Source of the DNA: Myxococcota bacterium
GTDB lineage: Bacteria; Myxococcota_A; UBA9160; JAFDDA01
Direction of reading: 5' to 3'
NCBI GenBank assembly: GCA_965228475.1
Contig: OZ245817.1
Location: 1,728,001-1,792,000, forward strand
Length of the DNA stretch: 64,000 nucleotides
Shown: positions 9,218-43,836 of the stretch, piece after piece
Numbering within the stretch: the first letter of the stretch is position 1
How the letters are laid out: each line of letters begins with the position of its first letter
The notes under the pieces: generated by a model
Seen by the model: the letters and a program-made list of their open reading frames with translations, nothing else
The model's database searches: none
What the model was told of the DNA's origin: nothing
Position numbers and translations under genes: made by a program

Positions 9218-10189
9218 ATGAGTCTTGCAGAACAGCAGATCCTGCTGACCGGTGGCACCGGCTCGTTCGGAAAGGCCTTCGCCCGGCGCCTGCTGCGTTC
9301 GGAAGAGGACGTCACGGTCCGGATCTACAGCCGGGACGAGCTGAAGCAGGTCGAGATGGCCCGCGAGTTCGGGGACGACCCGCGCCTCCGGTTCTTCATC
9401 GGCGACGTCCGCGATGCCAAGCGGCTGCGGCGTGCCATGCAGGGCGTCGACGTCGTCGTCCACGCGGCGGCCATGAAGCAGGTTCCGGTCTGCGAGTACA
9501 ACCCGGCCGAGGCCGTGCGCACGAACGTCGAGGGCGCCCAGAACGTGATCGATGCCGCGATCGACGCGGGCGTCCCGCGAACGATCGCCCTCTCGACGGA
9601 CAAGGCCGTGAATCCGGTGAACCTGTACGGCGCGACGAAGCTCTGCGCCGAGAAGCTCTTCGTCCATGGAAACATCTACGACGGAAGCCGGCAGTCGCGC
9701 TTCGCCTGCGTCCGCTACGGCAACGTCATGGGGAGCCGCGGTTCGGTGATCCCGCTCTTCCGGAAGCAGGCGGCCAGCGGGACGCTGACCCTGACCGACC
9801 GCCGCATGACGCGCTTCTGGCTTTCCCTCGAGCAGGCGGTGAGCCTCGTCCTGCTCTGCCTCGACGAGATGGAGGGCGGCGAGATCTTCATCCCGAAGAT
9901 CCCGAGCATGCGGATCACGGACCTCGCCCGTGCCGTGGCTCCGGAGGCGGACTGCAAGGAGATCGGCATCCGGGCCGGTGAGAAGCTCCACGAGATCCTG
10001 CTCACCGAGGAGGAGGCCCGTATGGCCGCGGAGTTCCCGACCCACTACGTGATCGGCCGCACCGGCCCGCCGGAGGGGGGCAAGGCCATTCCCGACGGCA
10101 CCAACTACTCGAGCGACACCAACACCCAGTGGATGACGGTGGAGTCGCTCCGGGACTACATCGCGGAGCTCGACGAGGCCGCGCCTTGA
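9218..10189 (+). CDS. pseB: UDP-N-acetylglucosamine 4,6-dehydratase (inverting)
   Basis: TGGTGSFG, YSRDELKQ, HAAAMKQVP, LSTDKAVNPVNLYGATK, RYGNVMGSRGSV, MTRFW, GEKLHE. Confidence 0.93.
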   Translation: MSLAEQQILLTGGTGSFGKAFARRLLRSEEDVTVRIYSRDELKQVEMAREFGDDPRLRFFIGDVRDAKRLRRAMQGVDVVVHAAAMKQVPVCEYNPAEAVRTNVEGAQNVIDAAIDAGVPRTIALSTDKAVNPVNLYGATKLCAEKLFVHGNIYDGSRQSRFACVRYGNVMGSRGSVIPLFRKQAASGTLTLTDRRMTRFWLSLEQAVSLVLLCLDEMEGGEIFIPKIPSMRITDLARAVAPEADCKEIGIRAGEKLHEILLTEEEARMAAEFPTHYVIGRTGPPEGGKAIPDGTNYSSDTNTQWMTVESLRDYIAELDEAAP

Positions 10190-11376
10190 GTCAAGCGGAT
10201 CCGCTGCCCTACGCCCGCCACGCGATCACCCCCGAAGACATCCAGGCCGTGGCGGACGTCCTGGCCGGCGCCCAGGTGGCCCAGGGCCCCGAGGCCGCTG
10301 GCTTCGAACGTGGCCTCGCCGCGGCGACGGGCGCGAGCCACGCGGTCTCCGTCTCGAGCGGAACGGCGGCGCTCCACGTGGCGCTGCGGGCCCTCGGCGT
10401 CGGCCCCGGGGACGAAGTGATCGTTCCCTCGCTCACGTTCCTCGCCACGGCCAACGCCGTGCTGTTCTGCGGCGCCCGGCCCGTCTTCGCCGACGTCGAC
10501 CCCGAGACCCTGACCCTGGACCCGGCGAGCGTCGCGGCGCGAACGACCTCGCGGACCCGCGGCGCCATTCCCGTCCACTTCGCGGGCCATCCCGCGGATA
10601 CGCGGGGCATCGCCGATGCCCTCGGGCCGGGCCGGTTCCTCGTCGAGGACGCCTGCCACGCGCTCGGCGCCCGCGCGGGCGACCGGCCGGCCGGAAGCCT
10701 CGGCGACGCCGCGTGCTTCTCCTTCCACCCCGCGAAGCACATCACGACGGGGGAGGGCGGGGCGGTCACCTGTGCCGACGACGACCTGGCCCAGCGTCTG
10801 CGTTCCTTGCGCAACCACGGCGTCGAGCGGCGCCCGGAGAACTTCCGAGGGCTCGGGCTACCGGCCGAGCTCTCGGCCGAGGAGCGCGGCCCGTGGATCT
10901 ACGAGATGCACGAGCTGGCCCCGAACTACCGCCTCTCCGAGCCCGCCGCCGCCCTCGGGCGCAGTCAGCTCCGGCGCCTCGAGGAGAACCTCCGAAGCCG
11001 CCGGGAGATCGTCGGCGTCTACGCCGAGGCCTTCGCGGATGAACCCCTGCTCCGGCTGCCGACCGAGCGCGCCGGCTACACCTCGGCGTGGCACCTCTAT
11101 CCGATCCGCCTCGAGATCGGCGCCCTGCGCGGAGGCCGGGCGGCGTTCTTCGACGGCCTGCGGCGCGCGGGGCTCGGCGTGCAGGTCCACTACATCCCCG
11201 TCCACCTTCAGCCCTACTACCGGAAGCAGCTCGGGACCGCCTGGGGCGACCTCCCGGCGACGGAGGACGCCTACCTCCGCATGCTTTCGCTCCCGCTGTT
11301 CCCGAGCGCCTCGGATGCCGAGATCGATCGGGTGATCCGCGCCGTGCGAGGGCTCGCCGTGAGGCTCCGCCGGTGA
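10186..11376 (+). CDS. pseC: PLP-dependent nucleotide-sugar aminotransferase (DegT family)
   Basis: LPYARHAI, SSGTAALH, EDACHALG, FSFHPAKHITTGEGG, VQVHYIPVHLQPYY; TTG start overlapping pseB stop. Confidence 0.88.
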   Translation: MSQADPLPYARHAITPEDIQAVADVLAGAQVAQGPEAAGFERGLAAATGASHAVSVSSGTAALHVALRALGVGPGDEVIVPSLTFLATANAVLFCGARPVFADVDPETLTLDPASVAARTTSRTRGAIPVHFAGHPADTRGIADALGPGRFLVEDACHALGARAGDRPAGSLGDAACFSFHPAKHITTGEGGAVTCADDDLAQRLRSLRNHGVERRPENFRGLGLPAELSAEERGPWIYEMHELAPNYRLSEPAAALGRSQLRRLEENLRSRREIVGVYAEAFADEPLLRLPTERAGYTSAWHLYPIRLEIGALRGGRAAFFDGLRRAGLGVQVHYIPVHLQPYYRKQLGTAWGDLPATEDAYLRMLSLPLFPSASDAEIDRVIRAVRGLAVRLRR

Positions 11377-13739
11377 GCGGCGGCGGCGCGGCGAATCCGC
11401 TGCGCCTCTTCACCGTCTTCCACGGCAACCTCGACTTTTCGGCCCTGCCGGACCGCGATCTCCCGATCGTGATCGAGCGCTGCTACTGGCCGCTGCTGGC
11501 CCTGGCTTCGGACGCCCGGATCCCGTTGGGTTTCGAGATGCCCGCCCGTACCCTCGAGCGGCTCGCCCACGAGGACCCCGAGTGGTTGAAGACCTTTCGT
11601 GAGTTGGCCGAGCGCGGCCTCGTCGAGCCGGTCGGCTCGGGCGACGTCCAGCTGATCGGTCCCCTGGTTCCCGCGGACGTGAATCGTGCGAACCTGCGGC
11701 GCGGCGCGGAGAGCTACGCCCGCCTGCTCGGGGCGCCGCCGACGACGTGGTTCGTCAACGAGCAGACCTTCTCGAGCGGGCTCGCGCCGCTCTACCACGA
11801 GGCGGGCGCCGAACGGCTCGTGATGGAGTGGAACAATCCCGCGAGCCGCCGCCCGGAACTCCGGCCGCTTCGGCACCGCTCGGCGAAGCTCGACGTCGGC
11901 GGCGGCCGCACGCTGCCCCTGCTCTGGAACGACTCGATCGTCTTCCAGAAGCTCCAGCGGACGGTGCACGGGCACACCCCGGTCCGGGACTACCTCGATG
12001 CCGTCGTCCGGGCGCAGTCCTCCGACGATTCGCCCCGAGCCCTGTGTGCCTACGGCGGCGACGTCGAGATCTTCGACTACCGGCCGGGCCACCCCGCTCC
12101 CGAGGGTGCCCGCGAAGGCCGGGAGATGGCCCGGCTCGCGGCGACGCTGCGGACGCTACGGGCGGTCCCCGGCGTGGCCTTCCGGCTCCCGCGCGACGTG
12201 TTCGGCACGGACGAGCTCGGGCCGACGGTCGAACTCAGCAGCGCCAGCGACCCGATCCCGTGCAAGAAGCAGCCTCGCTACAACCCGACGCGCTGGGCCG
12301 TCTCGGGCCGCGACGGCGCCGGCCAGAACACGCGCTGCTTCCTGCTGCATCGCTGGCTCGCGACGGAGCGTGCGCTCGCGGGCGGACCGACGACCGAGGC
12401 CGCCGGGGTCGCCAATGCGGAGGATCCGGAGCGCGATCTCGTCCGCTCCTGGGGCAGCGACTCCCGGACCCGCGCGACCGAAGAGCGCCTGCTCGCCTTC
12501 CACGCGCGCATGGGCATCGCGCTCGCCGGGGTCCGCGCCCGGGTCGATCGCCGGCTGCCGGAGCGCCGAGACGGCGAGGACGTCCTGCTGTGCAACGCCT
12601 CCCACGAGGCGTGGGAAGGCCTGCCCATCGAAGTCCCGCTGCACCTGGCGCCGGGACGCCTTCCTGATCTTCGCGCGGTGCCGGACGTCGCGGAGTTCCT
12701 TCCGCCGGGCCGCCAGCAGCTCGAAGTCCACGGCCGCTACCGCGACGGGAGCGTCCGCCGCGCGATCCTGCTCCTCGAGCCCGAGCTTCCCCCCGGCGCG
12801 CGCCTGCGTCTCCGGCTCGAGCCGGCGCTCCAGGGCGAGGGCGCAGCGGGGGGCGAAGCATCGTCCGTCGAGTCGCCGCCGGACCGGCTCGCGACCGGCG
12901 AGGTTTCTGCGGAGTTCCTCCTGCACCGTGGCGGCGCTCTGGCCGCGCTCGCCTTTCCGCGCCAGGGTCCCGCGGCCCTGCTCGGCAGCGTTCCCCACGG
13001 AAGCTACGACGAGATCGCCTACACGCCGGACTTCTACTCGGGGCACGTCGTTGCCGTCGGGGAAGACGGAAAGAAGAGAACGGACCTGGCCCGGGCCGGC
13101 GCCTTCGCGGTCCACCGTGGCGCGCTGCGGACCACCCTCGGCCTGCGCTTCGCGACGCCCATCGGCGAATGGACGAAGCTCTACCGCGTCTACGAGCGGC
13201 ATCCGCGTCTCGACCTCGTGCACGGCCTGGCGTTCCACGAGGCACGCCTCGCCTCGCTGCGCCTCGGGACGTTGACGGCCCGTCCGGACGGGTTCTCCCG
13301 TGCGGGGCTCGGGTACGAGACGATGAACGGGGGCGACACGGTCGAGCGCTTCGACCTCTCGCCGGGCTGCCGCGTCGATCAGCACGCGCCGGTTCCCGGC
13401 GCGACCACGGCGACCTCCTGCCTCGGCGCGACCGGCGGCTTCGTGACCCTGCGGGACGCCGAGCGCGCGGTGACCGTCGCCGGGGACCGCAGCCAGTCCG
13501 CGGTCGTCCCCCTGCTCGAGTTCAACGACGTCGACGGCGGCTACTTCCTGCGGCTGCATCACACCCTCGCCGAGAGCGACGAGACCCGCGCGACCTTCCT
13601 GCGTGGCTTCCGCCGCGTCGCCTTCGCCGTGGTCGGCCACCCGCCGCAAGGGGGCGAAGGCCGGCGCCACGCCGGGGCGCTCCAGCGGGGTCTCCTCTAT
13701 CGAACGGAGCACGGAATTGGAATCGCACGCGGCGTTTGA
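11373..13739 (+). CDS. Glycoside hydrolase family 57-like protein
   Basis: FHGNL, ERCYWPLL, QLIGPL, FVNEQ (nucleophile region) and YGGDVEIF (acid/base region); GTGA overlap with pseC. Confidence 0.7.
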   Translation: MSGGGAANPLRLFTVFHGNLDFSALPDRDLPIVIERCYWPLLALASDARIPLGFEMPARTLERLAHEDPEWLKTFRELAERGLVEPVGSGDVQLIGPLVPADVNRANLRRGAESYARLLGAPPTTWFVNEQTFSSGLAPLYHEAGAERLVMEWNNPASRRPELRPLRHRSAKLDVGGGRTLPLLWNDSIVFQKLQRTVHGHTPVRDYLDAVVRAQSSDDSPRALCAYGGDVEIFDYRPGHPAPEGAREGREMARLAATLRTLRAVPGVAFRLPRDVFGTDELGPTVELSSASDPIPCKKQPRYNPTRWAVSGRDGAGQNTRCFLLHRWLATERALAGGPTTEAAGVANAEDPERDLVRSWGSDSRTRATEERLLAFHARMGIALAGVRARVDRRLPERRDGEDVLLCNASHEAWEGLPIEVPLHLAPGRLPDLRAVPDVAEFLPPGRQQLEVHGRYRDGSVRRAILLLEPELPPGARLRLRLEPALQGEGAAGGEASSVESPPDRLATGEVSAEFLLHRGGALAALAFPRQGPAALLGSVPHGSYDEIAYTPDFYSGHVVAVGEDGKKRTDLARAGAFAVHRGALRTTLGLRFATPIGEWTKLYRVYERHPRLDLVHGLAFHEARLASLRLGTLTARPDGFSRAGLGYETMNGGDTVERFDLSPGCRVDQHAPVPGATTATSCLGATGGFVTLRDAERAVTVAGDRSQSAVVPLLEFNDVDGGYFLRLHHTLAESDETRATFLRGFRRVAFAVVGHPPQGGEGRRHAGALQRGLLYRTEHGIGIARGV

Positions 13740-15621
13740 ACGCAACCTGGCGCGGATTCGTCGGCGCAACGCGCCTTCGGCCCGGCTCGTCGAGACCAGT
13801 ACCGACCCGACGATCCGCGTGGTCGAAGGGCCGAAGGGCGCCTCGACGATCTCCGTCGGCGGCAAGCTCCTGGGCTCCGCCTACGATCCGAAGGCCGAGG
13901 GCGAGCGCCTGGCCGGGAGCTGGCTGAAGGAGAAGACCGACGTGCTCGTGGCGGTCGGCTTCGGTCTCGGGCACCAGCTCGAAGCGTTCCGCGAGCGGAA
14001 CCCGTGCCCCATCCTGATCTACGAGCCGTCTCCGGCACGCCTGCGCGCCGCCCTCGAGACGCGCTCCTTCCCGCTCCTCGAAGAGGACGACGTGTGGCTC
14101 ACGACGGAGCTCACGCCCCTCGGCGGATTGCTCGCTCGCTACTACGTCCCCGGCCTGTCCATCCGGGTCGCCCCGCACCCGGCGCTGCTCGACCTCGACC
14201 CGGCGGCCGTGCAGGATGCCGTCGCCCAGGTCCGGCAGACGAAGAACGCCCTCGACATCACCGCGGCCACGCGCGTCGAGAAATCGGCGGCGTGGGCGGG
14301 GTTGACGGTCGAGAACCTTCCGGAGTGGCTGCCGTCTCCGAGCGCCTTCGCGCTGAAGAACGCCTTCGAGGGCATGCCCGCCGTGGTATGCGCGGCCGGC
14401 CCCTCCCTCGATGCGCAGCTGCCCCGACTCCGCGAGTACCAGGACCGGGTGTTGATCGTGGCGATCGGCCAGGTCGTCGGGTCGCTGCGCGCGGCGGGGA
14501 TCCGTCCCCACCTCGTCCACATCGTCGAGTCCCAGGACGTCCGCCACCATCTCGTCGACGCCGATGGGCAGGGCAGCGAGGATCTCGACCTCTTCGTCCT
14601 CGCGAACGTCTTCCCGGGGCTCTTCGAGCCGCCCGTCCGAACGCGCTACCACGTGCCGATCCAGGCCGACAGCGTGGCGACCTGGCTGCGCGGCTTCGCC
14701 GGCGACGCCCGCGGGATGCACAGCGGCGGAACGGTGGCACAGACCGCGGTGTTCCTGGCGCGCGTCCTCGGTGCCGACCCGGTGCTCCTGATCGGCCAGG
14801 ATCTCGCCTACACGAATCAACGCGCCTATGCGAAGGGCAGCAGCTACGACGGCGTCGGCTTCCAGGAAGACGGCGAGGGTCACTACCGCCTGACGCGGAT
14901 CGACCGCAAGATGCGCCACTTCCGCAAGGTGAAGGGGCCGGCGCGGACGCAGCCGCGGGAACTGGTCTGGGTGCCGGGCTGGGGCGGCGAGCGCGTCGCG
15001 ACCTCGCCCGCCTACGCCTCCTTCCGGGAGACCTACCGCGACATCGCGGCCTCGGTCGAGCGCGATGGCGGACGCCTGATCAACTGCACGGAGGGGGGTG
15101 CCCTGATCCCCGGCGTCGATCACGAGCCCTTCGCCGCGATGCTCGAGCGCCACGCGGCGCCGGGGCCCGTCGCGATCTCGGAGCGGATCGCCAAGGTGCA
15201 CGCCGAGCATGCTCCCCTCGAACGCGAACCGTTCGAGCAGGGTCTCGCACGCCTCGACCGGGCCCTCGACGCGCTCGAGCGCGATGCCCGGGATGGACTC
15301 GAGGGTGCGGAGAAGGCGCTCCGGGCGCTCTCGCGCCGGACGAGCCAGCAGCGCCAGATCGATCTGCTGCGCGGCATCGGGCGCTGCGAACGGCGCGTCC
15401 AGAAGGGGCTCGCCGGGGTGCCGTGGCTCGACCCGCTGATCCAGGCGGCTCTGCACGAGGCCATTGCGGAGTCCCGCCGCCGCGGCGGTGCGACACCGAC
15501 CGCGGAGCACGCCGCCGAAGAATCGAAGACGCTCTTCGAGACCACGATCGAAGGGATCGAGCGCGCGCGGGAGATGCGCTCGCGGATCGAGGAACGTCTC
15601 GAGACCTGTCTGCCGTCCTAG
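13717..15621 (+). CDS. maf: Motility-associated factor (Maf/DUF115) flagellin nonulosonate glycosyltransferase
   Basis: LGSAYDP, GFGLGH, VVCAAGPSLD, GIRPHLV, GGTVA, LIGQDLAY, LINCTEGGALI, C-terminal helical bundle; TTG start inferred. Confidence 0.85.
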   Translation: MESHAAFERNLARIRRRNAPSARLVETSTDPTIRVVEGPKGASTISVGGKLLGSAYDPKAEGERLAGSWLKEKTDVLVAVGFGLGHQLEAFRERNPCPILIYEPSPARLRAALETRSFPLLEEDDVWLTTELTPLGGLLARYYVPGLSIRVAPHPALLDLDPAAVQDAVAQVRQTKNALDITAATRVEKSAAWAGLTVENLPEWLPSPSAFALKNAFEGMPAVVCAAGPSLDAQLPRLREYQDRVLIVAIGQVVGSLRAAGIRPHLVHIVESQDVRHHLVDADGQGSEDLDLFVLANVFPGLFEPPVRTRYHVPIQADSVATWLRGFAGDARGMHSGGTVAQTAVFLARVLGADPVLLIGQDLAYTNQRAYAKGSSYDGVGFQEDGEGHYRLTRIDRKMRHFRKVKGPARTQPRELVWVPGWGGERVATSPAYASFRETYRDIAASVERDGGRLINCTEGGALIPGVDHEPFAAMLERHAAPGPVAISERIAKVHAEHAPLEREPFEQGLARLDRALDALERDARDGLEGAEKALRALSRRTSQQRQIDLLRGIGRCERRVQKGLAGVPWLDPLIQAALHEAIAESRRRGGATPTAEHAAEESKTLFETTIEGIERAREMRSRIEERLETCLPS

Positions 15622-16328
15622 CCCAGGTCTGCGTTGATCTCTGCGAGTTCCGGGCGGAGCTCGAGCCGCTCGATCAGGTCTTCCGTCGTGAAGTCCGCAC
15701 TCCCGAACTCCGCGTAGACCGCCTGGGCGAACCGGAGGTCGTCCGGGAGGTCGACGCACAGCCGCCAGCCGGGCCGGGGGCCGTGGCCTTCGGGCGCCGG
15801 GGCGACGGCCAGCTTGAACGCGTCCGGGTGGTGCTCTGCGAGCAGCGCCAGGTGTTCCCGCTCCTCCCGCGTGGCGTGGCCGGTGTGGAAGCGGTCGAGG
15901 ACGCGCCGGGAGAAGGGGTCGATCCCGATGTGCAGGGTCGGCCGGTCGAAGGTGGCGTAGTCGCCGTCCTGGTCGACGAGCGCGCGGGCCAGGCGGCCGA
16001 CGGCTTCCGGACAGACGAAAGGGCAGTCTCCGGTCACCCGGATCAGGTGGTCGAGGCGCCAGGCGTCGGCGCAGGCGACGAAGCGCCCGAGGACGTCGTC
16101 GACGTCGTCGGCCCGCAGGCAGGGCACCGAGAGTTCGTGGCAGAGCGCCTCGACGGCGTGGTCGCGCGGATCGGTGCTCGTCGCCACCGCGACCTGATCG
16201 ACGTGGTCCGCCCGCGCGAGCCGTTCGAGGATGCGTTCGAGCATCGGCCGGCCCGCGAGCTCGGCGAGCACCTTGCCGGGCAGACGTCGGCTTCCCATTC
16301 GGACCTGTACGACGACACCGGTTCTCAT
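15618..16328 (-). CDS. Cytidylyltransferase, SpsF/PseF-like CMP-nonulosonate synthetase
   Basis: VQVRMGSRRLPGKVL, DDVLGRF, IRVTGDCPF, REH, RLCVDLPDD. Confidence 0.85.
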   Translation of the reverse strand: MRTGVVVQVRMGSRRLPGKVLAELAGRPMLERILERLARADHVDQVAVATSTDPRDHAVEALCHELSVPCLRADDVDDVLGRFVACADAWRLDHLIRVTGDCPFVCPEAVGRLARALVDQDGDYATFDRPTLHIGIDPFSRRVLDRFHTGHATREEREHLALLAEHHPDAFKLAVAPAPEGHGPRPGWRLCVDLPDDLRFAQAVYAEFGSADFTTEDLIERLELRPELAEINADLG

Positions 16329-18497: not shown

Positions 18498-18513
18498 TGG
18501 CATGACGCTTGCT
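18498..18513 (+). promoter_or_regulatory. sigma54 promoter for the hypothetical-PilZ-TPR-regulator operon
   Basis: TGGCAT-GACGC-TTGCT. Confidence 0.8.
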
Positions 18514-34705: not shown

Positions 34706-34797
34706 CCTGAACGGCCGCTCCGCCGCACCGTGGCCTCGCAGGCCGCGGTCCGGCGGGGTTCGTGACGAAGAATCGCCAGGTCGTGAAGGAGCAAGCC

Positions 34798-35904: not shown

Positions 35905-36851
35905 GCGGCAGGGAGCGTCAGGTCCTCGTCCTCGGCTGCAACGCCAACCAGGTGCCCTACATCGAGGCGGCCCGTGCGCTCGGCTTCCGGGTGATCGGGA
36001 CGGACCGCAACGCCGATGCGCCCGGAACGGCCCTCGTGGATGCGTTCCACCCGGTGGCCTACGACGACGTCCCGGGCCTGCTCGACGCGGCCCGCAAGGA
36101 AGCGCTCGGCCCGGACGACCGCGTCTTCACGGCGGCGGCCCATCTGGCCTACGAAGGTGCGGTGGAGGTCGCCCGCGCGGCGGGGATTGCCTTCCCGAGC
36201 CGGGACGCCATCCACACCGCCCTCGACAAGACCCGCTTCTACCCGGCCCTCGAGCGCGTGGGGCTGCGAATCCCGAAGACCGTACGGCTGCGGCCGGAGG
36301 ACGAGCCCGAACTCGATGCCGGGCGCGCCTACTGGCTGAAGTCCGACTACGGGAAGTCGCCTCGCTACTGCTGGCGCGTCACGGAAGGGCGGCTGCCGCC
36401 GCGTCCGGAAGCCTTCGACGCGTTCTACCGGGCGGGTTTCTTGCTCCAGGAGGAGATCGTCGGCACTCACCTGCGCGTGAACCTCTGGCCCGGAGACCTC
36501 GCGGTCTTCGAGCGGGACGGCGAGGAATGGCACGCACGGGAGGGGCTTCCGCAGCGCGTCGCCGCCGGACTGCGCGCCTTCGTCGGCAGTCTCGGCTTCG
36601 GGGGCTGGCTCACCAAGTTCGATCTGATCGAGCGGGAAGGGGTGCACTACGTGCTCGACCTCGGTCTCGACCCCCCGCTCCGGCTGCGCCGCGCCTGTGA
36701 AGCGCGAGGCAAGGACTTCGCGCGTGCCTACACCGCGCTCTATCTCTGCGGGGATCCCGCAGGGCTGCCGTGCTGGGAGGCGCTCCGCCGCGGAGCGTCC
36801 GTGCACGTCTCCACGGCCGCCGAAGTGGCAGGGAGTCGCGCGTGCGGGTGA
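35901..36851 (+). CDS. ATP-grasp domain protein (paralog 2, divergent)
   Basis: LGCNANQVPYI...GTDRNADAPG, LDK, WLKSD, LLQEEI, KFD. Confidence 0.7.
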   Translation: MSGRERQVLVLGCNANQVPYIEAARALGFRVIGTDRNADAPGTALVDAFHPVAYDDVPGLLDAARKEALGPDDRVFTAAAHLAYEGAVEVARAAGIAFPSRDAIHTALDKTRFYPALERVGLRIPKTVRLRPEDEPELDAGRAYWLKSDYGKSPRYCWRVTEGRLPPRPEAFDAFYRAGFLLQEEIVGTHLRVNLWPGDLAVFERDGEEWHAREGLPQRVAAGLRAFVGSLGFGGWLTKFDLIEREGVHYVLDLGLDPPLRLRRACEARGKDFARAYTALYLCGDPAGLPCWEALRRGASVHVSTAAEVAGSRACG

Positions 36852-37972
36852 TCGTGGCCAGTGCCCTCGGCGAAGCGCGGCTCGCGGCGTGTCTCGATGC
36901 CCTGCACACGTCCGCCCCCGACTGGCAGCCCGAGGTGCACGTCGTCGAGGAGAGGGGAACGCGGGAGGCGACCTGGAACGCGGGGCTCGACGCGGTGGGC
37001 CGGGACCAGGACGTGCTCTTCCTCGGCGACGACATCACGCTCACGCCCGGCTTTCGGGACGCGCTCGAGCGCGGCGCCGCTCGGGCCGAGATCGTCGGGC
37101 TCTGCACCGTCGACCCGCCGGCCGACGACGGACCGGCCGCGTCGCGAAGGGTCGGAGATCGGGGCTATCGGCTGGCCCGCACCGACGGGCGCGTCACCGT
37201 CGAAGCGCTCGACCGGGGCGAGACGGTCGAAGGGCTCGAACCCTTCGGCGTTCGCGCGTGCGATGCGGTGTGCGGCTGCCTCTTCCTCGTGAAGGCGCCG
37301 ATCCTGCGCGCCGTCGAACGGTTCCGGCCCGAAGGGATGAACCGCTGGGGGGAGCTGATCTTCGCGCTCGAGGCGCGGGCGGCCGGCGCCCGCGTCGCCG
37401 TCGTCGAACACTACGTGGAGCACGCGGCCACGAGCAGCAAGGCGAAGACGGATCCGCTCCTCGCGAGCACGAGCTGGTCCACGGAGCGGCAGCTCTGGTC
37501 CCGCGTGGTCGACCGCTTCGTGCGGGACGAGTGGGTGTCCGACGCCGGAGCGACCCGCATCGACCCGGGCCTCCGCCGCTGGCTCGATCGGCCGGGACGG
37601 CTCGTCTTCTACGGAGCCGGGACCGTGGCGGCGCATCTCCTCGAACACGCCGGCCTCGGGCCCGAACGCGTGCTCCTGTGCAGCGGCCTTCCCGAGGAGG
37701 CCGGCGTTCCGTTCCAGGGCCACGAGATCGTGCCCGTCGGCGCCGTGCGCTTCACGCCGACGGACCGGGTTCTCGTGACCCCGCTCCATCGCGGGGAGAA
37801 GATCGCCCGCGAGGAGATCCTGCCGCGCCTTCCCAGGAACTTCCGCGGCCAGGTGGGCGCCGTCGGGTCCCGGACCGAGCCCGGCGGTGGACGGTCGCTC
37901 TGCCTCGAAGAGCTCGACACCGAGCCCCACTGGGGCGCTCCGCAGGATCCGGAGCCGCTCGAGGTCCGCTGA
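36842..37972 (+). CDS. Glycosyltransferase family 2-like protein with C-terminal small Rossmann-like domain
   Basis: LAACLDAL, TWNAGL, VLFLGDD, AVCGCLFLV; C-terminal LVFYGAG. Confidence 0.7.
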   Translation: MRVIVASALGEARLAACLDALHTSAPDWQPEVHVVEERGTREATWNAGLDAVGRDQDVLFLGDDITLTPGFRDALERGAARAEIVGLCTVDPPADDGPAASRRVGDRGYRLARTDGRVTVEALDRGETVEGLEPFGVRACDAVCGCLFLVKAPILRAVERFRPEGMNRWGELIFALEARAAGARVAVVEHYVEHAATSSKAKTDPLLASTSWSTERQLWSRVVDRFVRDEWVSDAGATRIDPGLRRWLDRPGRLVFYGAGTVAAHLLEHAGLGPERVLLCSGLPEEAGVPFQGHEIVPVGAVRFTPTDRVLVTPLHRGEKIAREEILPRLPRNFRGQVGAVGSRTEPGGGRSLCLEELDTEPHWGAPQDPEPLEVR

Positions 37973-38023
37973 AACCTCCGCCGGGGTCGTGGCGTCCCAC
38001 TTCGTGTGGGTCATTCTCTCGAG

Positions 38024-38488
38024 ATGCTCGTGATGCCGCGCCGATGGCTCGTTTCCGCCGCCCTATTCCTCGGCCTCGTTCTCGGCTTGGGTCTGGCTGC
38101 GCCCGGCGCCGGGGCCGTCGAGTCGTTCAAGAACGCGTGCCGCCTCGACACCCAGCTCTTCTGCAGCGAGGTCGATCCCGAGAGCCCGCGCGTCGAGTTC
38201 GAGCGCTGCCTGCGCGCCAACATGGAGACGCTGACCGAGTCCTGCCGCGCCGTCCTCGACCCGAGCACCGTCCCCAAGCCGGTCCGCCGCTACCCGCCGA
38301 ATCCCTTCGACGTCTGCCGGGACGACTTCCGGCGCCTCTGCCCGCGCGTGCAGGACCGGATGGAGGCCGCGCGCTGCGTGAGCCGGCAGATGAATTCGCT
38401 CTCGGCCGACTGCCGGGAAGCGATCGAGTCCGCCACCCGCCGGCCGGGCTCGGGGTCGAAGGCCCCCGGAACCGCCCCCGCCCCCTGA
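38024..38488 (+). CDS. Secreted protein with two cysteine-rich repeats
   Basis: Signal peptide; ACRLDTQLFC...CL...LTESC and VCRDDFRRLC...CV...LSADC. Confidence 0.75.
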   Translation: MLVMPRRWLVSAALFLGLVLGLGLAAPGAGAVESFKNACRLDTQLFCSEVDPESPRVEFERCLRANMETLTESCRAVLDPSTVPKPVRRYPPNPFDVCRDDFRRLCPRVQDRMEAARCVSRQMNSLSADCREAIESATRRPGSGSKAPGTAPAP

Positions 38489-38816: not shown

Positions 38817-40124
38817 CTAGGCCAGGGCGGCGTTCGGCCGTTCCGCTGGGCCCGTCGGCCCGGCGGTCAGGGGCTCGACTTCGACACGGACCTGCTCGAT
38901 GGCGGCGATCGCCTGGGCGATGGCCTGCTCGCGGCTCTCCCCGCACGCGATGACCGAGCCGCCCCGGGAGGGGTGGCTGTCGATCGGGCCGACCACGTCG
39001 CCGGGTGCGAGCCGGATCTGGCTCCAGGCCACGCCGGGGCTCTGGCCGGCTGCGGCCGCCCCCTGCACCGAGACGACGCGCCCCGGCTTCGGGAACAGGT
39101 AGCGCTGGGCCACGCCGCGCTCGAAGCGCGGCCGCAGGGATTCCGGGCTCGGCCGCTCGCCGAGCGCCACGCGGATCGCCTGGCCGACGAAGTCCACGCC
39201 GGTCGAGAGCGGAATCTCGTGCGAACAGAAGCGCCCGCCCGAGAGCCGCGCCGCGACCTCGATCACGTGGGGGACGCCGTCGCAAACGACGATGTCACCC
39301 TTCACGACCCCGTTCTCGATCCCGAGGGCGTCGGCGGCCTGCTGGACGAGTTCGCGGATCGCTTCGCGGACGGGTTCGCCATGGCGCGTCGGAAGGGCGC
39401 CGCCGTTTTCGATCATGTGGGGCGCGTAGCATTCGAGCAGTTCGTAGTTGCGGTCCGACATGCCGACGGTGTGAGCGACTCCGTCGACCACGATGCTTTC
39501 GGTGGAGACCTGCGGGCCCTCGAGGAAGCGCTCGACCATCACGCGCCGGGTCGGCGAGTGGCTGCGCGCGAAGGCGTAGGCCCAGTCGAGGTCGACCTCG
39601 GGGGTGAGGCGCAGGACGCCGCGGGCGCCGCGGCTGTCCACCGGCTTCACGACGAGCGGGAGGCCACGTTCGGCCGCGAGACCGGCGAGGGTCGCCGCGC
39701 TCTCGACCGGCGCGAAGGCCGGGATCGCGACGCCCCGTTCGGCGAAGCGCTCCTTCATCGCGAGTTTGTCGCTGGCGAGCTCCGCGGCTTCGAGCGAGAT
39801 CCCCGGCGCCCCGATGGCCCGGGCGACGTGGGCAACGGTCCGCGGGACGTCGGAGGCGATGCACATCACGCCGTCGACGCGCCGCACGCGGCGGTGGTAG
39901 TCGAGGACCGCGGCGGTCGTGACCTCGACGTCGTAGGTGCTCGCGAGCAGCCGGTCGTCGGCGGCGGCGAAGCCCGGCGCCTGCGGGTCGGCGTCGGTGG
40001 CCACGACGTGCAGGCCCAGGTCCTTCGCACGGGCGATGCCGTCGGCTGCCTCGGCCCCCGCGCCGACGACGCAGAGCGTCTGCGGCGGTGTGACGGGATT
40101 CATCGCCATCGGCACATCAGGCAT
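38817..40124 (-). CDS. ATP-grasp domain protein (paralog 3, amino-acid-ligase-like); alternative start 40103
   Basis: VGAGAE, SDKLAMK, VVKPVDSRGARGV, VERFLEG, KGD, IEVAARLSGG. Confidence 0.88.
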   Translation of the reverse strand: MPDVPMAMNPVTPPQTLCVVGAGAEAADGIARAKDLGLHVVATDADPQAPGFAAADDRLLASTYDVEVTTAAVLDYHRRVRRVDGVMCIASDVPRTVAHVARAIGAPGISLEAAELASDKLAMKERFAERGVAIPAFAPVESAATLAGLAAERGLPLVVKPVDSRGARGVLRLTPEVDLDWAYAFARSHSPTRRVMVERFLEGPQVSTESIVVDGVAHTVGMSDRNYELLECYAPHMIENGGALPTRHGEPVREAIRELVQQAADALGIENGVVKGDIVVCDGVPHVIEVAARLSGGRFCSHEIPLSTGVDFVGQAIRVALGERPSPESLRPRFERGVAQRYLFPKPGRVVSVQGAAAAGQSPGVAWSQIRLAPGDVVGPIDSHPSRGGSVIACGESREQAIAQAIAAIEQVRVEVEPLTAGPTGPAERPNAALA

Positions 40125-41061
40125 GGGGTTCGACGAGCACCTTCACGCTGCGGTGTTCGGCCTTGCGTCCGGCGACCTCGTAGGCCCGGGAGATTTCCTC
40201 GAGCGGGAAGCGGTGCGTGAGCAGGGAGTCGAGGTCGAGCGCTCGGCTCTCGACGAGCCGGATCGCTTCGGCGAACTCGGCCCGGGTGTAGCGCTGGCTC
40301 CCGAGGACGGAGAGCTCGCGCTCGACGATCCACTTGAGCGTCAGCGGCCGGCTGTCCTTGATGTTCCCGACGAGGACGACCCGTCCGCAGGTCTCCGTGT
40401 GGTCCGCGGCCCACTGGAGACCGGAACCGTCGCCGGCCGCGGCGACGAGCGTCACCTCGGGCCGGAAGGCTTCGGCGTCCTCCGCGCCGAGGCTCGCCCC
40501 GAGTTCGCGCTGGAAGTCGTGCCGCGCCAGCAGCCCGACCCGCTCGGCGCCGGCCTGGCGCGCGAGCTGGATGAGGAGCAGGCCGATCGTGCTGGCCCCG
40601 AGCACGGCCACGCGTTTCCCGGCCAGCGGCCCGGCCACGGAAAGCACGTGCAGGCTCGAGGCGATCGGCTCGACGCAGGCGGCGTGGGCCGGATCGGCGG
40701 CGATCGGGTGGACGTTCCTCTCCGGCGCGTGGACGCGTTCCGCGAAGCCGCCGGGCGCGTGGTGGCTGATCATCCGAGGGCTCGCGCAGAGGTTCTCGCG
40801 CCCGTCTCGACAGAACGAACACGTCCCGCACTCGACGAGCGGATTCACGACGACGAGCCGCCCGTCGGAGCGCCCGGCGATCTCGTGGCCGGGCCAGTAC
40901 TCGGGAATCGGCGGGTTGCGGTCGTAGATCCCGAGATCCGAGCCGCAGACGCCGCAGGCCGCGACGTCGATGGCCTGCCAGCCCGGTTCGTTCACGAACT
41001 CCGGCGGCTCGACCTGGCGAAGCTCGAAGGTCGAGGGTGCGACGAGGACGGCGGCGCGCAT
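40117..41061 (-). CDS. Zinc-dependent medium-chain (sugar-alcohol-type) dehydrogenase
   Basis: CGVCGSD, GHE, CGTCSFC...C structural Zn site, GASTIG. Confidence 0.88.
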   Translation of the reverse strand: MRAAVLVAPSTFELRQVEPPEFVNEPGWQAIDVAACGVCGSDLGIYDRNPPIPEYWPGHEIAGRSDGRLVVVNPLVECGTCSFCRDGRENLCASPRMISHHAPGGFAERVHAPERNVHPIAADPAHAACVEPIASSLHVLSVAGPLAGKRVAVLGASTIGLLLIQLARQAGAERVGLLARHDFQRELGASLGAEDAEAFRPEVTLVAAAGDGSGLQWAADHTETCGRVVLVGNIKDSRPLTLKWIVERELSVLGSQRYTRAEFAEAIRLVESRALDLDSLLTHRFPLEEISRAYEVAGRKAEHRSVKVLVEPHA

Positions 41062-41063: not shown

Positions 41064-41801
41064 TCACGCCCCCGCCGCGGCCGAGGGCGCCGTCCGCGGG
41101 GCCTCGGAGGGGGACCGGCCGAGGCGCTCGTAGCTCGCGCGGGAAGTGGCATCGAGCGTCTTCCAGGCGGCATGGAAGTCGCGCTCGCCCTGGAGCGTGA
41201 GCGGGTTCGCGTGCACGTTCGTCCAGGTGGCCGGCGGCACGGTCACGACGTCGGCGCCCCCGCCGATCGCGGCCTCCAGGTGATGCGGGTTGCGAAGGCT
41301 CGCCACGAGCAGGCGCGTCGGGCTCCCGAGCGCATCGAGCATGCGCCGGCACTGGCCGACGGCCGTGGCGTGCTGCTCCCCGAAGTCCTCGACCCGGCCG
41401 AGGATCAGGCTCAGGTAGGCCACGCCGAGGCGCGCGAAGGGGATGCCCTGGGCCGGGTCGAAGGCCAGGGTGATGTTGCACGGGATGCCGTCCCCGGTGA
41501 GGGCCTCGGCGGCGCGGTAGCCCTCGAGGGTGGCCGGCACCTTCACCACGATGTTCGGGGCGAGGCGCGCGAGCGCGCGGCCCTGCGGGATCATCTCCGC
41601 CGCCTCGGTGCTCGTGACCTGCGCCGAGACGGGGCCCGCCACGGCGTCCGCGACGCGCACGAGCTGGTCGAGCGGGTCGCCGCCCTCCTTGGCCAGGAGC
41701 GCCGGGTTCGTCGTCACGCCCTCCACCAGGCCGAAGGCCTGCCAGCGGCGGATCTCGTCGAGGCTCGCGGTGTCCAGGAAGAATTCGAGGTCGTGGCTCA
41801 T
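41064..41801 (-). CDS. Transaldolase/fructose-6-phosphate aldolase family protein (atypical)
   Basis: FFLDTA, GVTTNP, VVKVP Schiff-base Lys, NITL, VASLRN, TVPP. Confidence 0.9.
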   Translation of the reverse strand: MSHDLEFFLDTASLDEIRRWQAFGLVEGVTTNPALLAKEGGDPLDQLVRVADAVAGPVSAQVTSTEAAEMIPQGRALARLAPNIVVKVPATLEGYRAAEALTGDGIPCNITLAFDPAQGIPFARLGVAYLSLILGRVEDFGEQHATAVGQCRRMLDALGSPTRLLVASLRNPHHLEAAIGGGADVVTVPPATWTNVHANPLTLQGERDFHAAWKTLDATSRASYERLGRSPSEAPRTAPSAAAGA

Positions 41802-41836: not shown

Positions 41837-42937
41837 TCAGTCGGGCGGCCGTGCGTAGCAGACGGTGTCGTAGAGGTTCTGGGAGTGGTGGCCCAGATGG
41901 AGGCGGTAGCCGGGAACGGTTTCCTTCAGGAGGATCGGAAGCTCCCAGAGGTCGCTCGGCCGGTGGTAGATGCAGATCGCGAGCTTCGGCGTCCGCTCGG
42001 TCAGCAGCGCCTTCGCGCCGGCGAGGGCTTCGCGCTCGGCGCCTTCGACGTCGAGTTTGATCCAGTCGACGCGGCCGGCGGTCTGCTCCCAGGCGAACTC
42101 ATCGAGGGCGACGACCCGGATCGCTTCGGTGCCGGGGGCCGATTCGCCGTCGGCGTTCGCTTCGGCCGTCGTGACGCGAAACTGTGACGGAGCCCCGTCG
42201 GTGGCGAGCCGGATCTCTCCGGTGCGGTTCCAGCAGCCGACGGGCTCGACCGAGACGCGCGCGCCGTGCGGGTGCTGGGCGACCGCTTCGCGCAGGCGTT
42301 CGAGGTTTTCCGAGGCGGGCTCGAAGGCGTGGACCCGGCCTTCGCTCCCGACGGCTTCCGCGTAGTCGAGCGAGGTCTCGCCGTCGAAGGCGCCGCCGTC
42401 GAAGATCCGCTCGCCCGGAAGCACGGGAACCTCCGGATGGCGGTAGGGCGGGGTCGGCGGCGGCAGGTCGCCCGGGTCGAGGGAGCGCCGGTGCGCGAGC
42501 ACCGCGTCGAAGATCGCTCGGGACTCCGGCTGGATCAGGCTTCGCGCGAAATGGATCTCGTCGCGGGCGTCGTCGTACACGGTTTCGTCGAAATGCCCCG
42601 ACCAGCGCGGGTCGCAAACGACGCTGCCGTCGAGAACGGGGCCCTCGTAGCCGTCCCCGCGGAGCTGCGCGGTCATCTCCCTCGCGTACATGCTCGCGGT
42701 CACGATGGTCTCGAAGCCCACGGCCGCGGCCTCTTCCGGGCCGAGGATGCGCGCTCCGCGGAAGCGGCCTTCGCGGTAGCTGTCGACGAAGGCCTCGGGC
42801 TTCAGGCCCAGGGCCGCCAGGGCCTCCGCGACGGCTTCACCGCCGGCGCCCGTTCCGAAGACCGCGAAGCGCCCGGGCGCCTCGAGGAAGCGCGTGAGCG
42901 CCGCGTTTCGAACGTCTCGCAAACTCTGCCTCACCAT
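41837..42937 (-). CDS. FkbM family SAM-dependent methyltransferase with N-terminal Rossmann-like domain
   Basis: FDGGAFDG, VHAFEP, IKLDVEGAE, PKLAICIYH. Confidence 0.88.
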   Translation of the reverse strand: MVRQSLRDVRNAALTRFLEAPGRFAVFGTGAGGEAVAEALAALGLKPEAFVDSYREGRFRGARILGPEEAAAVGFETIVTASMYAREMTAQLRGDGYEGPVLDGSVVCDPRWSGHFDETVYDDARDEIHFARSLIQPESRAIFDAVLAHRRSLDPGDLPPPTPPYRHPEVPVLPGERIFDGGAFDGETSLDYAEAVGSEGRVHAFEPASENLERLREAVAQHPHGARVSVEPVGCWNRTGEIRLATDGAPSQFRVTTAEANADGESAPGTEAIRVVALDEFAWEQTAGRVDWIKLDVEGAEREALAGAKALLTERTPKLAICIYHRPSDLWELPILLKETVPGYRLHLGHHSQNLYDTVCYARPPD

Positions 42938-43836
42938 GTGCCGTAGTCCGCCAGGCCGAGGCTCGCGACGAGCGCCCCGGTCCGTTCCCGATAGATCCGC
43001 TCGTGCTCGGCACCGAAGAAGTGCTGCCAGTCGCCGACGCGGGCGCGCCGCACGTGGTTCGGTGCGTCGGCGCGGGTGCGTTCCGGCTCGGTGTGGCGCA
43101 GGACGTCCGCCGCGAGGACGCGGTCCTCGACGCCCGCGAACTGCAGGAGCCGCGCAATCTGGCCGGCCCGATCCCCGACGAGCTCCTCGAAGCGCACGAG
43201 CTCGTAGCGGGAGGCCAGCGCGCGATAGGCCTCGACGTGACGGGCCCAGCGGTCGACGGAATTCGCGAAGTAGTCGAGCCGTCCGTAGAGCGCCTCGGGC
43301 GTGTCGATCCGGTACTCCGGGTGGCGCGCGAGCATCCGAGGGGAGGTGGCGTAGTGGATCCAGGAGTTGACGACGTCGCGCCCGTCGCGGATCAGGTAGA
43401 TCCAGCGCCGGCCCGGTCCGAGCAGGCGGGCGTGATCCTCCCGGGGCTCCTGGTGGGTCCAGAGCAGGGCGGCGTCGCGTTCGAAGCGCGCGAGATCCCG
43501 CAGCGCGAAGCGCGCCTTCAGGTGGCTGTTGCGGACGTAGACCTGCGCGTCGTGGACTTCCGCTTCGTCGAGGTCGCGCTGTTCCGGGAAGGAGAGCGGG
43601 ACGCCGTCGAGGGCGAAGAGGGAGTTCCAGCAGCCGGTCCGCGCCGCATGGGACTGGAAGGTTCCGGCGCGCTCCATGGCGGTGCGGAGCGTGCGGTAGA
43701 GGAGGTAGTTGCCCGACTTCTCGACGCCGCACTGGCCGACGAGCGGCTGAGCGCCCTTGCCGGAGGCGGGCCGCTTCGGCCGTTGCGTCGTTTTCGGCGG
43801 CAGCGGGCCGCGCGGATGGATCGCCTGGCTGGCCAT
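42931..43836 (-). CDS. PAPS-dependent sulfotransferase domain protein
   Basis: EKSGNYLL (5'-PSB-like), IYLIRDGRDVVNS (3'-PB), VRFEEL, VGDW. Confidence 0.8.
   Translation of the reverse strand: MASQAIHPRGPLPPKTTQRPKRPASGKGAQPLVGQCGVEKSGNYLLYRTLRTAMERAGTFQSHAARTGCWNSLFALDGVPLSFPEQRDLDEAEVHDAQVYVRNSHLKARFALRDLARFERDAALLWTHQEPREDHARLLGPGRRWIYLIRDGRDVVNSWIHYATSPRMLARHPEYRIDTPEALYGRLDYFANSVDRWARHVEAYRALASRYELVRFEELVGDRAGQIARLLQFAGVEDRVLAADVLRHTEPERTRADAPNHVRRARVGDWQHFFGAEHERIYRERTGALVASLGLADYGTW

Follow-up and report, generated by a model that had tools for sequence, protein, structure and literature searches.

The 64,000-nucleotide stretch analysed here (the window: positions 1,728,001 to 1,792,000, forward strand, of contig OZ245817.1, assembly GCA_965228475.1, from a bacterium of the Myxococcota) holds two groups of genes, islands 1 and 2, which are separated by approximately 16 kb of flagellar genes and which appear to form one flagellin glycosylation system. 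That the islands are the halves of one gene set is strongly supported by the arrangement of their homologues in related genomes, as is their functional link. On balance we consider it probable, judging from the sequence, that this set makes a pseudaminic acid (Pse)-like nonulosonic acid bearing a polyhydroxy-acyl chain, that the chain is linked by AG3, an ATP-grasp ligase of island 2, and that the glycosyltransferase Maf transfers the product to flagellin. The broader result is a phylum-spanning cassette, in which the enzyme forming a carbon-carbon (C-C) bond is swappable. Its conserved core consists of a C-C-bond enzyme and a reductase next to the ATP-grasp ligase. The window holds a rare variant of it, with an atypical transaldolase, a zinc-dependent dehydrogenase in place of the usual short-chain dehydrogenase/reductase (SDR) and, in addition, an FkbM methyltransferase and a sulfotransferase.

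The GC3-supported open reading frames (ORFs) of the window were scanned with Pfam and NCBIfam profile models, and the bit scores were compared with the cut-offs of the models. Island 1 carries pseB, a pseC-like gene, a GH57/GH38-like gene (GH57L), maf, a cytidylyltransferase gene (CMPt), a PseG-like gene (PseGL) and a short NeuB-like gene (NeuBL). Island 2 carries three ATP-grasp paralogs (AG1 to AG3), a gene for a protein resembling family 2 glycosyltransferases (GTL), the Zn-dehydrogenase (ADH), the transaldolase-like enzyme (TAL), FkbM and the sulfotransferase (ST); the coordinates are collected in Table 1. An earlier description of the same DNA, made from the letters alone (the sequence-only reading), had named these genes, and all of them were found in their places by the Pfam and NCBIfam models or, for AG2, by its likeness to AG1 and by language-model features; GTL is a lead from such features.

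AG3 was searched in 401 Myxococcota genomes, and the surrounding DNA was compared by tblastn. Close orthologues (39-54% identity) were detected only in the order of the window. In one of these genomes, G338, the gene order is NeuBL-PseGL-SDR-AG3-TAL-MT-ST-MT-ST (MT, methyltransferase), followed on the other strand by CMPt-Maf-GH57L-pseC-pseB-fliS-fliD-flagellin, and the left half is the same in G178. G128 and G303 carry NeuBL-PseGL-CMPt-ThDP enzyme-SDR-AG3 (ThDP, thiamine diphosphate), with GH57L next in G128. G108 is split as the window is, but has a split transketolase and an SDR ahead of AG3. In G406, a member of the same family, ADH-TAL-FkbM-ST and AG1-AG2-GTL lie beside AG3, as in the window. 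Because homologues of the two islands are fused in relatives into clusters with NeuB-like, PseG-like, Maf and pseB/pseC genes, and are so across phyla, the islands belong together, which agrees with the sequence-only reading. The split arrangement itself, by comparison with G338 and with L071, a locus labelled as uncultured Spirochaetales that is unsplit and has a transketolase, is lineage-specific. In G403, of the same genus, the site holds only an FkbM-like gene and a small Cys-rich gene and no AG3 operon, so that the island differs even between closely related genomes.

Two groups of loci deserve separate mention. L071 follows the gene order of the Myxococcota order of the window with 38-73% protein identity (sigma-54 activator, tetratricopeptide repeat (TPR) and PilZ genes; NeuBL-PseGL-CMPt-transketolase-SDR-AG3; Maf-GH57L-pseB-fliS-fliD-flagellin), and either a mistaken taxonomic label or a transfer of the region may lie behind this. 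Loci L045-L055 belong to genus g14, likewise of the order of the window; ahead of their AG3 orthologues (39-44% identity) stand an SDR and a divergent transketolase/E1-like pair, approx. 29% identical to the transketolase of G108, with extra ATP-grasp genes and methyltransferases alongside.

For the survey across phyla, one genome per species was scanned with an AG3 alignment; the pattern matches numbered more than 602, and 581 could be confirmed. The counts that follow refer to the best 80 of at least 581 loci, with 46-63% identity to AG3 and none from Shewanella; they were obtained by tblastn of the proteins of the window and of its relatives (E ≤1e-10), and many of the loci end at contig ends. 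According to the titles of their records, the 80 belong to Acidobacteriota, Alphaproteobacteria (many Rhizomicrobium, including R. electricum DSM 21034), Desulfobacterota, Desulfuromonas, Solirubrobacterales, Gemmatimonadota, Nitrospinota, Neomarinimicrobiota and others. An SDR gene lies directly upstream of AG3 and was detected in 74 loci, and GH57L in 69, in most of these beside AG3. NeuBL was present in 51, CMPt in 50, pseB in 39, pseC in 38, flagellin in 24 and Maf in 4, and at least one of NeuBL, pseB, pseC and CMPt was found within 10 kb in 65 of the 80. The usual order is methyltransferases, C-C enzyme, SDR, AG3, GH57L, pseB, pseC and flagellins. Of the genes whose co-occurrence was to be checked according to the sequence-only reading, NeuBL and GH57L accompany AG3 in the numbers given, the transaldolase was present in two loci and the Zn-dehydrogenase in none of the 80, G406 having both.

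Of the 80 loci, 56 have a split transketolase as their C-C-bond enzyme, 11 have an acetolactate-synthase-like ThDP enzyme and 2 have a transaldolase. Exactly one kind was present in 69 loci and two kinds together in none. Seven of the 11 loci without a C-C enzyme end approximately 1.5 kb or less upstream of AG3, and four (L069, L070, L083, L137) do not. The window likewise has a single C-C enzyme, TAL, 2 nt upstream of ADH. In a FastTree tree of 78 AG3 sequences (8 dropped for stops or short length, 67 labelled by C-C enzyme) the enzyme type changes at least 13 times, shuffled labels averaging 14.3, and when only well-supported branches are counted, transketolase and the ThDP enzyme each still require at least 8 changes. 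The C-C enzyme is thus a module that is freely exchanged, and in the family of the window the SDR is replaced as well, by a Zn-ADH which is absent from the 80 loci.

In the R. electricum locus (L134) no acetyltransferase was found among the cluster genes by Pfam annotation. At positions 3273-5048 of its minus strand, this locus encodes a cytidylyltransferase fused to a PseG-like domain (591 aa, PseG 92.2 bits). The cluster has TPR proteins at its flanks and shows no Maf; apparently, therefore, non-Maf transferases work with the cassette too.

AG3, a carboxylate-amine ligase of the L-amino-acid-ligase type, exceeds the cut-offs of both domains (Table 1), and in the PDB it matches best the L-amino acid ligase 3vot (E 4.9e-18). 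AG1 is 32% identical to AG3. No Pfam match was obtained for AG2, the N-terminal 125 aa of which are 28% identical to AG1 (E 6e-7) and the language-model features of which score 0.96 to ATP-grasp_3/PylC clusters. GTL gave neither Pfam nor NCBIfam matches, and its features score 0.93-0.95 to clusters with Glycos_transf_2 or C2185-like_N. The AG1-AG2-GTL trio recurs with cassette clusters in L080 and L132 as well as in G406. AG3-related proteins are numerous (2562 of 8000 scored protein clusters at E ≤1e-40), and their public names are merely "biotin carboxylase" or "ATP-grasp domain-containing protein".

The closest PDB matches of TAL are the short transaldolases 3r8r and 1vpx (approx. 160 bits), versus approx. 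72 bits for fructose-6-phosphate aldolases (FSA), and its TIGR00875 score is 178.9 bits against a cut-off of 245.95. In this family a Lys forms the Schiff base and an Asp is catalytic. The Lys in VVKVP, the Asp in FLDTA and the Thr in NITL of TAL all align with 3r8r and 1vpx, so that the Schiff-base Lys and the catalytic Asp are in place. The sequence-only reading had called the aldolase atypical, and it is so at two motifs, reading VSAQV and SLILGR instead of the VSAEV and SPFxGR of canonical short transaldolases. The Glu of transaldolases serves as general base; whether the enzyme acts by transfer or as an aldolase depends on the Phe (Tyr in FSA). TAL combines Gln with Ile, which is neither the Glu-Phe pairing of transaldolase nor the Gln-Tyr pairing of FSA, and therefore it fits neither class. 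The same changes (Glu to Gln, Pro-Phe to Leu-Ile) occur in the orthologues of G338, G178 and G406; in L077 and L098, two cassette loci that are further removed, the transaldolases lack them. For ADH the nearest NCBIfam models are polyol (keto-polyol) and keto-sugar-acid dehydrogenases, all under the cut-off; the gene stands where relatives have the SDR, directly upstream of AG3. A gene for adenosine 5'-phosphosulfate (APS) kinase is present in the genome.

Among the island 1 enzymes only PseB surpassed the cut-off of its equivalog model (Table 1). The pseC-like protein scored highest with the PseC model but stayed below its cut-off (TIGR03588, 385.9 vs 423.5 bits), and the same was true of the PseG (45.5 vs 153.55), PseI (149.8 vs 340.25) and PseF (20.1 vs 205.7) models. 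The cytidylyltransferase is far nearer to the KdsB subfamily (67.6 bits) than to PseF. The short NeuB consists of the NeuB domain only, without a SAF domain, and is the sole NeuB-family gene found in a scan of the whole genome. The absence of pseH from island 1, noted before, extends to the whole genome, where the best PseH score (TIGR03585) was 30.2 bits against a cut-off of 93.1. As to an anti-correlation between the cassette and pseH, none of 32 cassette-bearing genomes from other phyla passes (best 50.3 bits). Within the order of the window the comparison is uninformative, because none of 121 genomes passes; in the control set 1 of 14 genomes does, which indicates that the model is able to pass.

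GH57L follows pseC with the overlapping junction expected of translational coupling, as had been described. Its occurrence in 69 of the 80 loci makes it a core partner of AG3 and not a side feature of island 1; in the window it belongs to island 1 and is some 25 kb away from AG3, so that the adjacency of the two genes is not found here. The PF03065 match (31 bits, cut-off 21.2) covers a part of the domain. A confident AlphaFold (AF2) model was obtained with 26 homologues (pLDDT 89, pTM 0.92), and its top Foldseek matches were GH38 mannosidases (E 1.5e-23) and a GH57 glucanotransferase, the architecture of the whole protein matching GH38 alpha-mannosidases and GH57 4-alpha-glucanotransferase (E 1e-23 to 1e-18, TM approx. 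0.6). Glu130 and Asp230 are invariant in the 26 sequences and in the profile alignment the invariant Glu (VNEQAY) and Asp (GNDAEIF) fall on the Glu (WLTERV) and Asp (HDDGEKF) of 1k1w, which we take to be the nucleophile and the acid/base of GH57. In view of the fold match and this alignment the model looks like an active glycosidase or transglycosylase, with the catalytic Glu and Asp apparently kept.

In the pathway which we propose, PseB and PseC would give UDP-4-amino-4,6-dideoxy-AltNAc. An aldehyde-bearing acid is probably extended by TAL with a three-carbon ketol unit, and the ketone so formed is probably reduced by the Zn-dehydrogenase. AG3 would activate the polyhydroxy acid as an acyl phosphate and link it as an amide to the free 4-amino group, which becomes N7, and would so take over the task that PseH performs with acetyl, and FkbM and ST would O-methylate and O-sulfate the chain. 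The PseG-like and NeuB-like proteins and the cytidylyltransferase would complete and CMP-activate the sugar, which Maf would transfer to flagellin. The three classes of C-C enzyme would be interchangeable, and a ketoreductase always next to them, because all of them give an alpha-hydroxy-ketone. The flagellin glycan of Treponema denticola was reportedly described by Kurniyati in 2017. According to PMC13439194 it is a nonulosonic acid with a 2-methoxy-4,5,6-trihydroxy-hexanoyl group, an N-acyl chain. Such a six-carbon chain would fit the joining of a two-carbon ketol to a four-carbon 2-hydroxy-aldehyde-acid, followed by reduction and 2-O-methylation, and on the same reasoning the use of a transaldolase in this genome would lead to a chain of seven carbons. 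The central steps, that is, a sugar-derived acid made by aldolase and dehydrogenase, its attachment by an ATP-grasp ligase to the PseC amine, and methyl and sulfate groups on the chain, were already proposed in the sequence-only reading, and we infer the same. That at least ten phyla carry a plug-and-play cassette replacing PseH, in which the swapping of three unrelated C-C enzymes varies the length and the end group of a hydroxy-acyl chain, the L-amino-acid-ligase-type enzyme attaches this chain to the flagellin nonulosonic acid and the GH57/38-like protein performs a new obligatory step, and that the present case is the first sulfated and methylated seven-carbon-acyl Pse on a bacterial flagellin, is a more tentative extension, which we consider possible but less likely than not.

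Several points weigh against this pathway. Transaldolase-family enzymes are known for dihydroxyacetone-type donors and not for the making of carboxylic acids, and the acceptor aldehyde-acid is hypothetical. The proposed scheme has no place for GH57L, conserved as it is, and ST (2 of 80), FkbM (3 of 80) and ADH (0 of 80) are rare in the best AG3 loci. The other objections come from the flagellin glycosylation genes sfmABCDE of Shewanella oneidensis (Bubendorfer et al. 2013, PMC3765264), which encode a 290-aa NeuB, an IlvB-like ThDP enzyme, an SDR, an S-adenosylmethionine (SAM) methyltransferase and a 412-aa ATP-grasp protein. The flagellin was described there as carrying a mono-N-acetyl 274-Da nonulosonic acid with a core oxonium ion C11H19N2O6+ and a nitrogen-free, methylated moiety of 236-264 Da, the only nitrogens of the glycan being the two of the sugar (PMC3765264). 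As such this glycan, from a genome with no clear PseH, agrees with the proposed pathway, as does that of T. denticola. From the ions given in the paper the 236-Da moiety is computed as C9H16O7, without nitrogen, a formula which we could not fit to a simple scheme of a C2 unit and a C4 aldehyde-acid. After deletion of sfmA to sfmD (NeuB, ThDP enzyme, SDR, methyltransferase) the flagellin was at the unmodified size, and deletion of sfmE (ATP-grasp) gave a slightly smaller shift (PMC3765264); this is not what would be predicted if SfmB to SfmD made the acid and SfmE attached it in the place of PseH. Moreover, the 236-Da part was easily lost in the ion source and the 274-Da part seemed basic (PMC3765264), which could mean a linkage other than an amide.

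These observations bear on the alternatives. It is unlikely, in our estimate, that the C-C enzyme and the reductase work on the sugar skeleton itself and not on a free acid, a keto or aldehyde sugar intermediate receiving a branch or extension of two or three carbons and then being reduced, with AG3 adding some other small acid or forming an ester. YerE and YerF in the synthesis of yersiniose set a precedent for the branching of a skeleton, and the pairs of acetolactate-synthase-like ThDP enzyme and SDR beside sugar genes in 11 of the 80 loci would suit it; transketolase and transaldolase, however, are generally known to take aldehyde acceptors and not 4-keto sugars. In the cluster of the window, profile scans did not find a carrier protein, a CoA ligase or an aldehyde dehydrogenase by which an acid could be made, and in the S. 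oneidensis data the loss of the ThDP enzyme or of the SDR abolishes the modification as the loss of NeuB does, the loss of the ATP-grasp protein not fully (PMC3765264), which also speaks for a role in the sugar. Against it stand the core formula from the same source, which is that of an unbranched mono-N-acetyl Pse, and the description of the extra group of T. denticola as an N-acyl chain (PMC13439194).

Somewhat less likely still, the cassette would build a second unit (a higher sugar or a polyol-acid), joined by an ester or a glycosidic bond to a hydroxyl of the nonulosonic acid, with AG3 forming the ester or GH57L transglycosylating and N7 left free. In favour of this are the Glu and Asp kept in GH57L, which align with those of a GH57 transferase, and the presence of GH57L in 69 of the 80 loci. 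Ester formation by ATP-grasp enzymes, however, is mainly known from peptide macrocyclisation, a gamma-hydroxy amide would on chemical grounds be likewise labile through lactone formation, and the T. denticola glycan is reported as N-acylated (PMC13439194). We regard it as very improbable that island 2 makes something else, for example a capsule, a lipopolysaccharide or a secondary metabolite, and that its place next to flagellar genes is incidental: the approx. 16 kb between the islands, the lack of the AG3 operon in G403 and a neighbouring LarA-like gene without a flagellar link would agree with it, but AG3, TAL and ST homologues lie within NeuB/PseG/Maf/pseBC clusters in G338, G178, G128, G303 and L071, 65 of the 80 loci have nonulosonic acid genes within 10 kb, and the genome has a single NeuB-family gene.

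The glycans on flagellin influence how filaments assemble, how phages attach and how the immune system recognises flagellin. Large extra groups are present on the flagellin sugars of Shewanella and Treponema without a known biosynthesis, and the cassette contains the likely genes behind such groups. Since the C-C enzyme is interchangeable, side-chain masses can be predicted for each variant and tested by glycopeptide mass spectrometry. On a mono-N-acetyl core of 274 Da the N7-amide chain would vary in size with the C-C enzyme and, provided that the acceptor is a four-carbon aldehyde-acid, would add approx. 162 Da with transketolase, approx. 146 Da with the ThDP enzyme and approx. 192 Da with transaldolase, to which each methyl would contribute 14 Da and a sulfate 80 Da. 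Rhizomicrobium electricum DSM 21034 and Desulfuromonas sp. CSMB_57 are cultured carriers of the cassette, and S. oneidensis is also cultured for such tests.

Table 1. Features of islands 1 and 2 and of their surroundings, with positions counted from the first nucleotide of the window.
Feature	Position	Strand	Evidence or remark
Sigma-54-type motif, 1 mismatch	5542-5556	+	before flagellin gene
Flagellin, likely acceptor protein	5760..6584	+	Flagellin_N match at 5772-6182
fliD	6755-8236		after flagellin gene
fliS	8289-8666		after fliD
Sigma-54-type motif TGGCAC-N5-TTGC, exact	9156-9170	+	30 nt before pseB
pseB, UDP-GlcNAc 4,6-dehydratase (inverting)	9200..10189	+	TIGR03589 470 bits, cut-off 407.75
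pseC-like aminotransferase	10186..11376	+	DegT family 369.9 bits; start 10186 or 10129
GH57/GH38-like protein (GH57L)	11373..13739	+	PF03065 31 bits, cut-off 21.2
Maf flagellin glycosyltransferase	13717..15621	+	MptE-like 105.8 bits, Maf_flag10_N 20.7 bits; start uncertain
CMP-sugar cytidylyltransferase, KdsB-like (CMPt)	15618..16367	-	CTP_transf_3 76.2 bits
Divergent PseG-like UDP-sugar hydrolase	16325..17416	-	TIGR03590 45.5 bits, cut-off 153.55; EryCIII-like_C 18.6 bits
Short NeuB-like nonulosonic acid synthase	17413..18375	-	NeuB 181.7 bits; start uncertain, ORF open to 18747
Sigma-54-type motif, 1 mismatch	18498-18512	+	before PilZ gene
Sigma-54 activator gene	22116-23723		profile scan
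Sigma-54-type motif, exact	23826-23840	+	before flgB
flgE	33246-34640		island 2 directly after
AG1, ATP-grasp paralog	34762..35904	+	ATPgrasp_N 21.5 bits; weak NCBIfam ATP-grasp matches
AG2, probable short ATP-grasp paralog	35901..36851	+	N-terminal likeness to AG1; language-model features
GT2-like protein (GTL), lead only	36848..37972	+	language-model features alone
Small Cys-rich protein, signal-like N-terminus, membership doubtful	38006..38488	+	weak Cys_rich_FGFR match
AG3, L-amino-acid-ligase-type ATP-grasp ligase	38817..40124	-	LAL_C2 68.3 bits, cut-off 29.4; ATP-grasp_3 44.2 bits, cut-off 23.2
Zn-dependent medium-chain dehydrogenase (ADH)	40117..41061	-	ADH_N 58.8 bits, ADH_zinc_N 45.9 bits
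Atypical short transaldolase/FSA-family enzyme (TAL)	41064..41801	-	TAL_FSA 140.9 bits
FkbM-family methyltransferase	41837..42937	-	Methyltransf_21 64.3 bits; TIGR01444 87.7 bits, cut-off 37.7
Sulfotransferase (ST)	42931..43836	-	Sulfotransfer_1 38 bits, cut-off 22; KSG and RDGRD motifs in translation
Sigma-28-like motif TCAAG-N16-CCGAT	43938-43963	-	157-bp LarA-ST gap, 101 nt before ST start
LarA-like 2-hydroxyacid racemase	43994..45298	-	Lar_N 199.4 bits; NF033504 362.5 bits, cut-off 460

According to the profile scans, the gene order in the window (G+C 72%, part of a single contig of 5.0 Mb) is flagellin-fliD-fliS, island 1, a PilZ gene, a 746-aa TPR protein, a sigma-54 activator, flgB/C, fliE-F-G-H-I-J, fliK, flgD, flgE, island 2, the LarA-like gene, an amidase and RNase PH. 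At the junctions, pseB/pseC, pseC/GH57L, NeuB/PseG, AG1/AG2, AG2/GTL, ST/FkbM and ADH/AG3 overlap, a TTG start of pseC overlapping the stop of pseB and the stop of ADH overlapping the start of AG3; in the junction sequence of TAL and ADH the intergenic gap is the 2 nt given above. Because of these start-stop overlaps each island is read as tightly coupled operons. The motif TGGCAC-N5-TTGC, which we take to be the sigma-54 consensus, occurs six times in the window with at most one mismatch, compared with 1.96 expected, and six were reached in 1 of 100 shuffles. A looser, Myxococcota-type sigma-28-like motif has one match at a suitable place but is statistically weak, with 2 matches against 0.75 expected (2 reached in 18 of 100 shuffles), the second and looser copy lying 44 nt before the ST start. 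No match to the canonical sigma-28 consensus of enterobacteria was found in the scan.

The PilZ-domain gene (18759-19724, +) and the gene of the 746-aa TPR protein (19550-21790, +) lie between the NeuB-like gene and the sigma-54 activator, and the trio of PilZ, TPR and activator genes is kept in G108, G338 and L071; the TPR protein could be a FlmG-like flagellin glycosyltransferase. A 119-aa ORF (8663-9022, +) without a Pfam match overlaps the stop of fliS. By this place, between fliS and the sugar genes, it brings to mind the small flagellin-binding helpers of which GlfM, described in a 2023 preprint (10.1101/2023.12.03.569772), is one. The genome has a second Maf-like gene (MptE-like 67.3 bits) at 4.92 Mb (L149, G000:C1:4906000-4925999), with a SurA-like gene on one side and HicB, PIN and IS1595 transposase genes on the other, in a setting of housekeeping, toxin-antitoxin and IS genes and with no sugar genes nearby. 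G403, although it has no AG3 operon at the site, retains a 45% homologue of the small Cys-rich protein.

The LarA-like gene was considered as a conserved member of the pathway and rejected, being absent between ST and AmiC in G406 and from all 80 of the best AG3 loci. It resembles lactate/malate racemases below the cut-offs, lies directly upstream of ST-FkbM-TAL-ADH-AG3 on the same strand and is the sole LarA of the genome, with LarC encoded elsewhere. Judged by this distribution it is probably a neighbour and not a conserved cassette member, and it may have a lineage-specific role on a 2-hydroxy acid.

Among known systems, the canonical PseB-C-H-G-I-F pathway of Campylobacter and Helicobacter shares with the window a PseB above the cut-off, and the window also has an aminotransferase, a UDP-sugar-hydrolase-like protein, a phosphoenolpyruvate (PEP)-condensing synthase, a cytidylyltransferase and Maf. 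It differs by the lack of PseH, by PseC, PseG, PseI and PseF scores below the cut-offs and by a cytidylyltransferase which is more KdsB- than PseF-like. With the L-amino acid ligases (BL00235, PDB 3vot; BacD) AG3 has the LAL_C2 and ATP-grasp_3 domains in common, but the identity is low and AG3 stands in a sugar pathway, with a sugar amine predicted as the nucleophile and an acid other than an amino acid predicted as its partner. TAL belongs to the fold family of the short (subfamily 5) transaldolases and FSA; its general-base Glu is replaced by Gln, as in FSA, whereas the position that holds Phe in the transaldolases or Tyr in FSA is Ile. From the GH57/GH38 enzymes GH57L differs by an identity of about 10-12%, by its first motif, FHLNL, by its cytoplasmic location and by its place within a nonulosonic acid cluster. 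The T. denticola glycan (PMC13439194) is a precedent at the level of the product, a methylated polyhydroxy-acyl group on a Pse-like flagellin sugar, with the difference that no sulfate is reported there. Metagenome-assembled genomes labelled as Spirochaete carry a transketolase-SDR-AG3-GH57L cassette (L081).

The statement of the sequence-only reading that no characterised pathway has this gene set holds for biochemistry, but a genetically studied counterpart exists in sfmABCDE of S. oneidensis (PMC3765264). A full-text search of the literature found this paper as the only one in which nonulosonic acid and ATP-grasp occur together, and found no work linking transketolase to flagellin glycosylation. 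According to the paper, sfmABCDE adjoins a Maf gene, two of this kind (maf-1, maf-2) being named, and the genome has PseB and PseC and no clear PseH, G, I or F (PMC3765264). The preprint mentioned above equates pseI with So3261, calls the cytidylyltransferase SO_3269 unusually large and suggests that proteins without an assigned function may make a "substantially modified" Pse (10.1101/2023.12.03.569772). A large SO_3269 would fit a CMPt-PseG fusion of the kind seen in R. electricum.

The comparison with sfm rests on the gene descriptions in PMC3765264, not on the Sfm sequences. Both the window and sfm have a short NeuB, an ATP-grasp protein, a methyltransferase and pseB/pseC without PseH in a flagellar cluster with Maf, and in both a C-C-bond enzyme and a reductase stand beside the ATP-grasp protein. 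G128 and G303 even carry the same gene types, ThDP enzyme and SDR, in nearly the same order. The window differs in that TAL and the Zn-ADH take the places of the ThDP enzyme and the SDR, the methyltransferase is of the FkbM family and not of the class-I SAM type, there are in addition a sulfotransferase, a GT2-like gene and a further pair of ATP-grasp genes, and the set is split by the flagellar operon. Judged by its genes, the locus is thus best described as a variant of sfm-type flagellin glycosylation, marked by a module of transaldolase-like enzyme and Zn-ADH, by additional ATP-grasp genes and a sulfotransferase, and by the hook operon that divides it.

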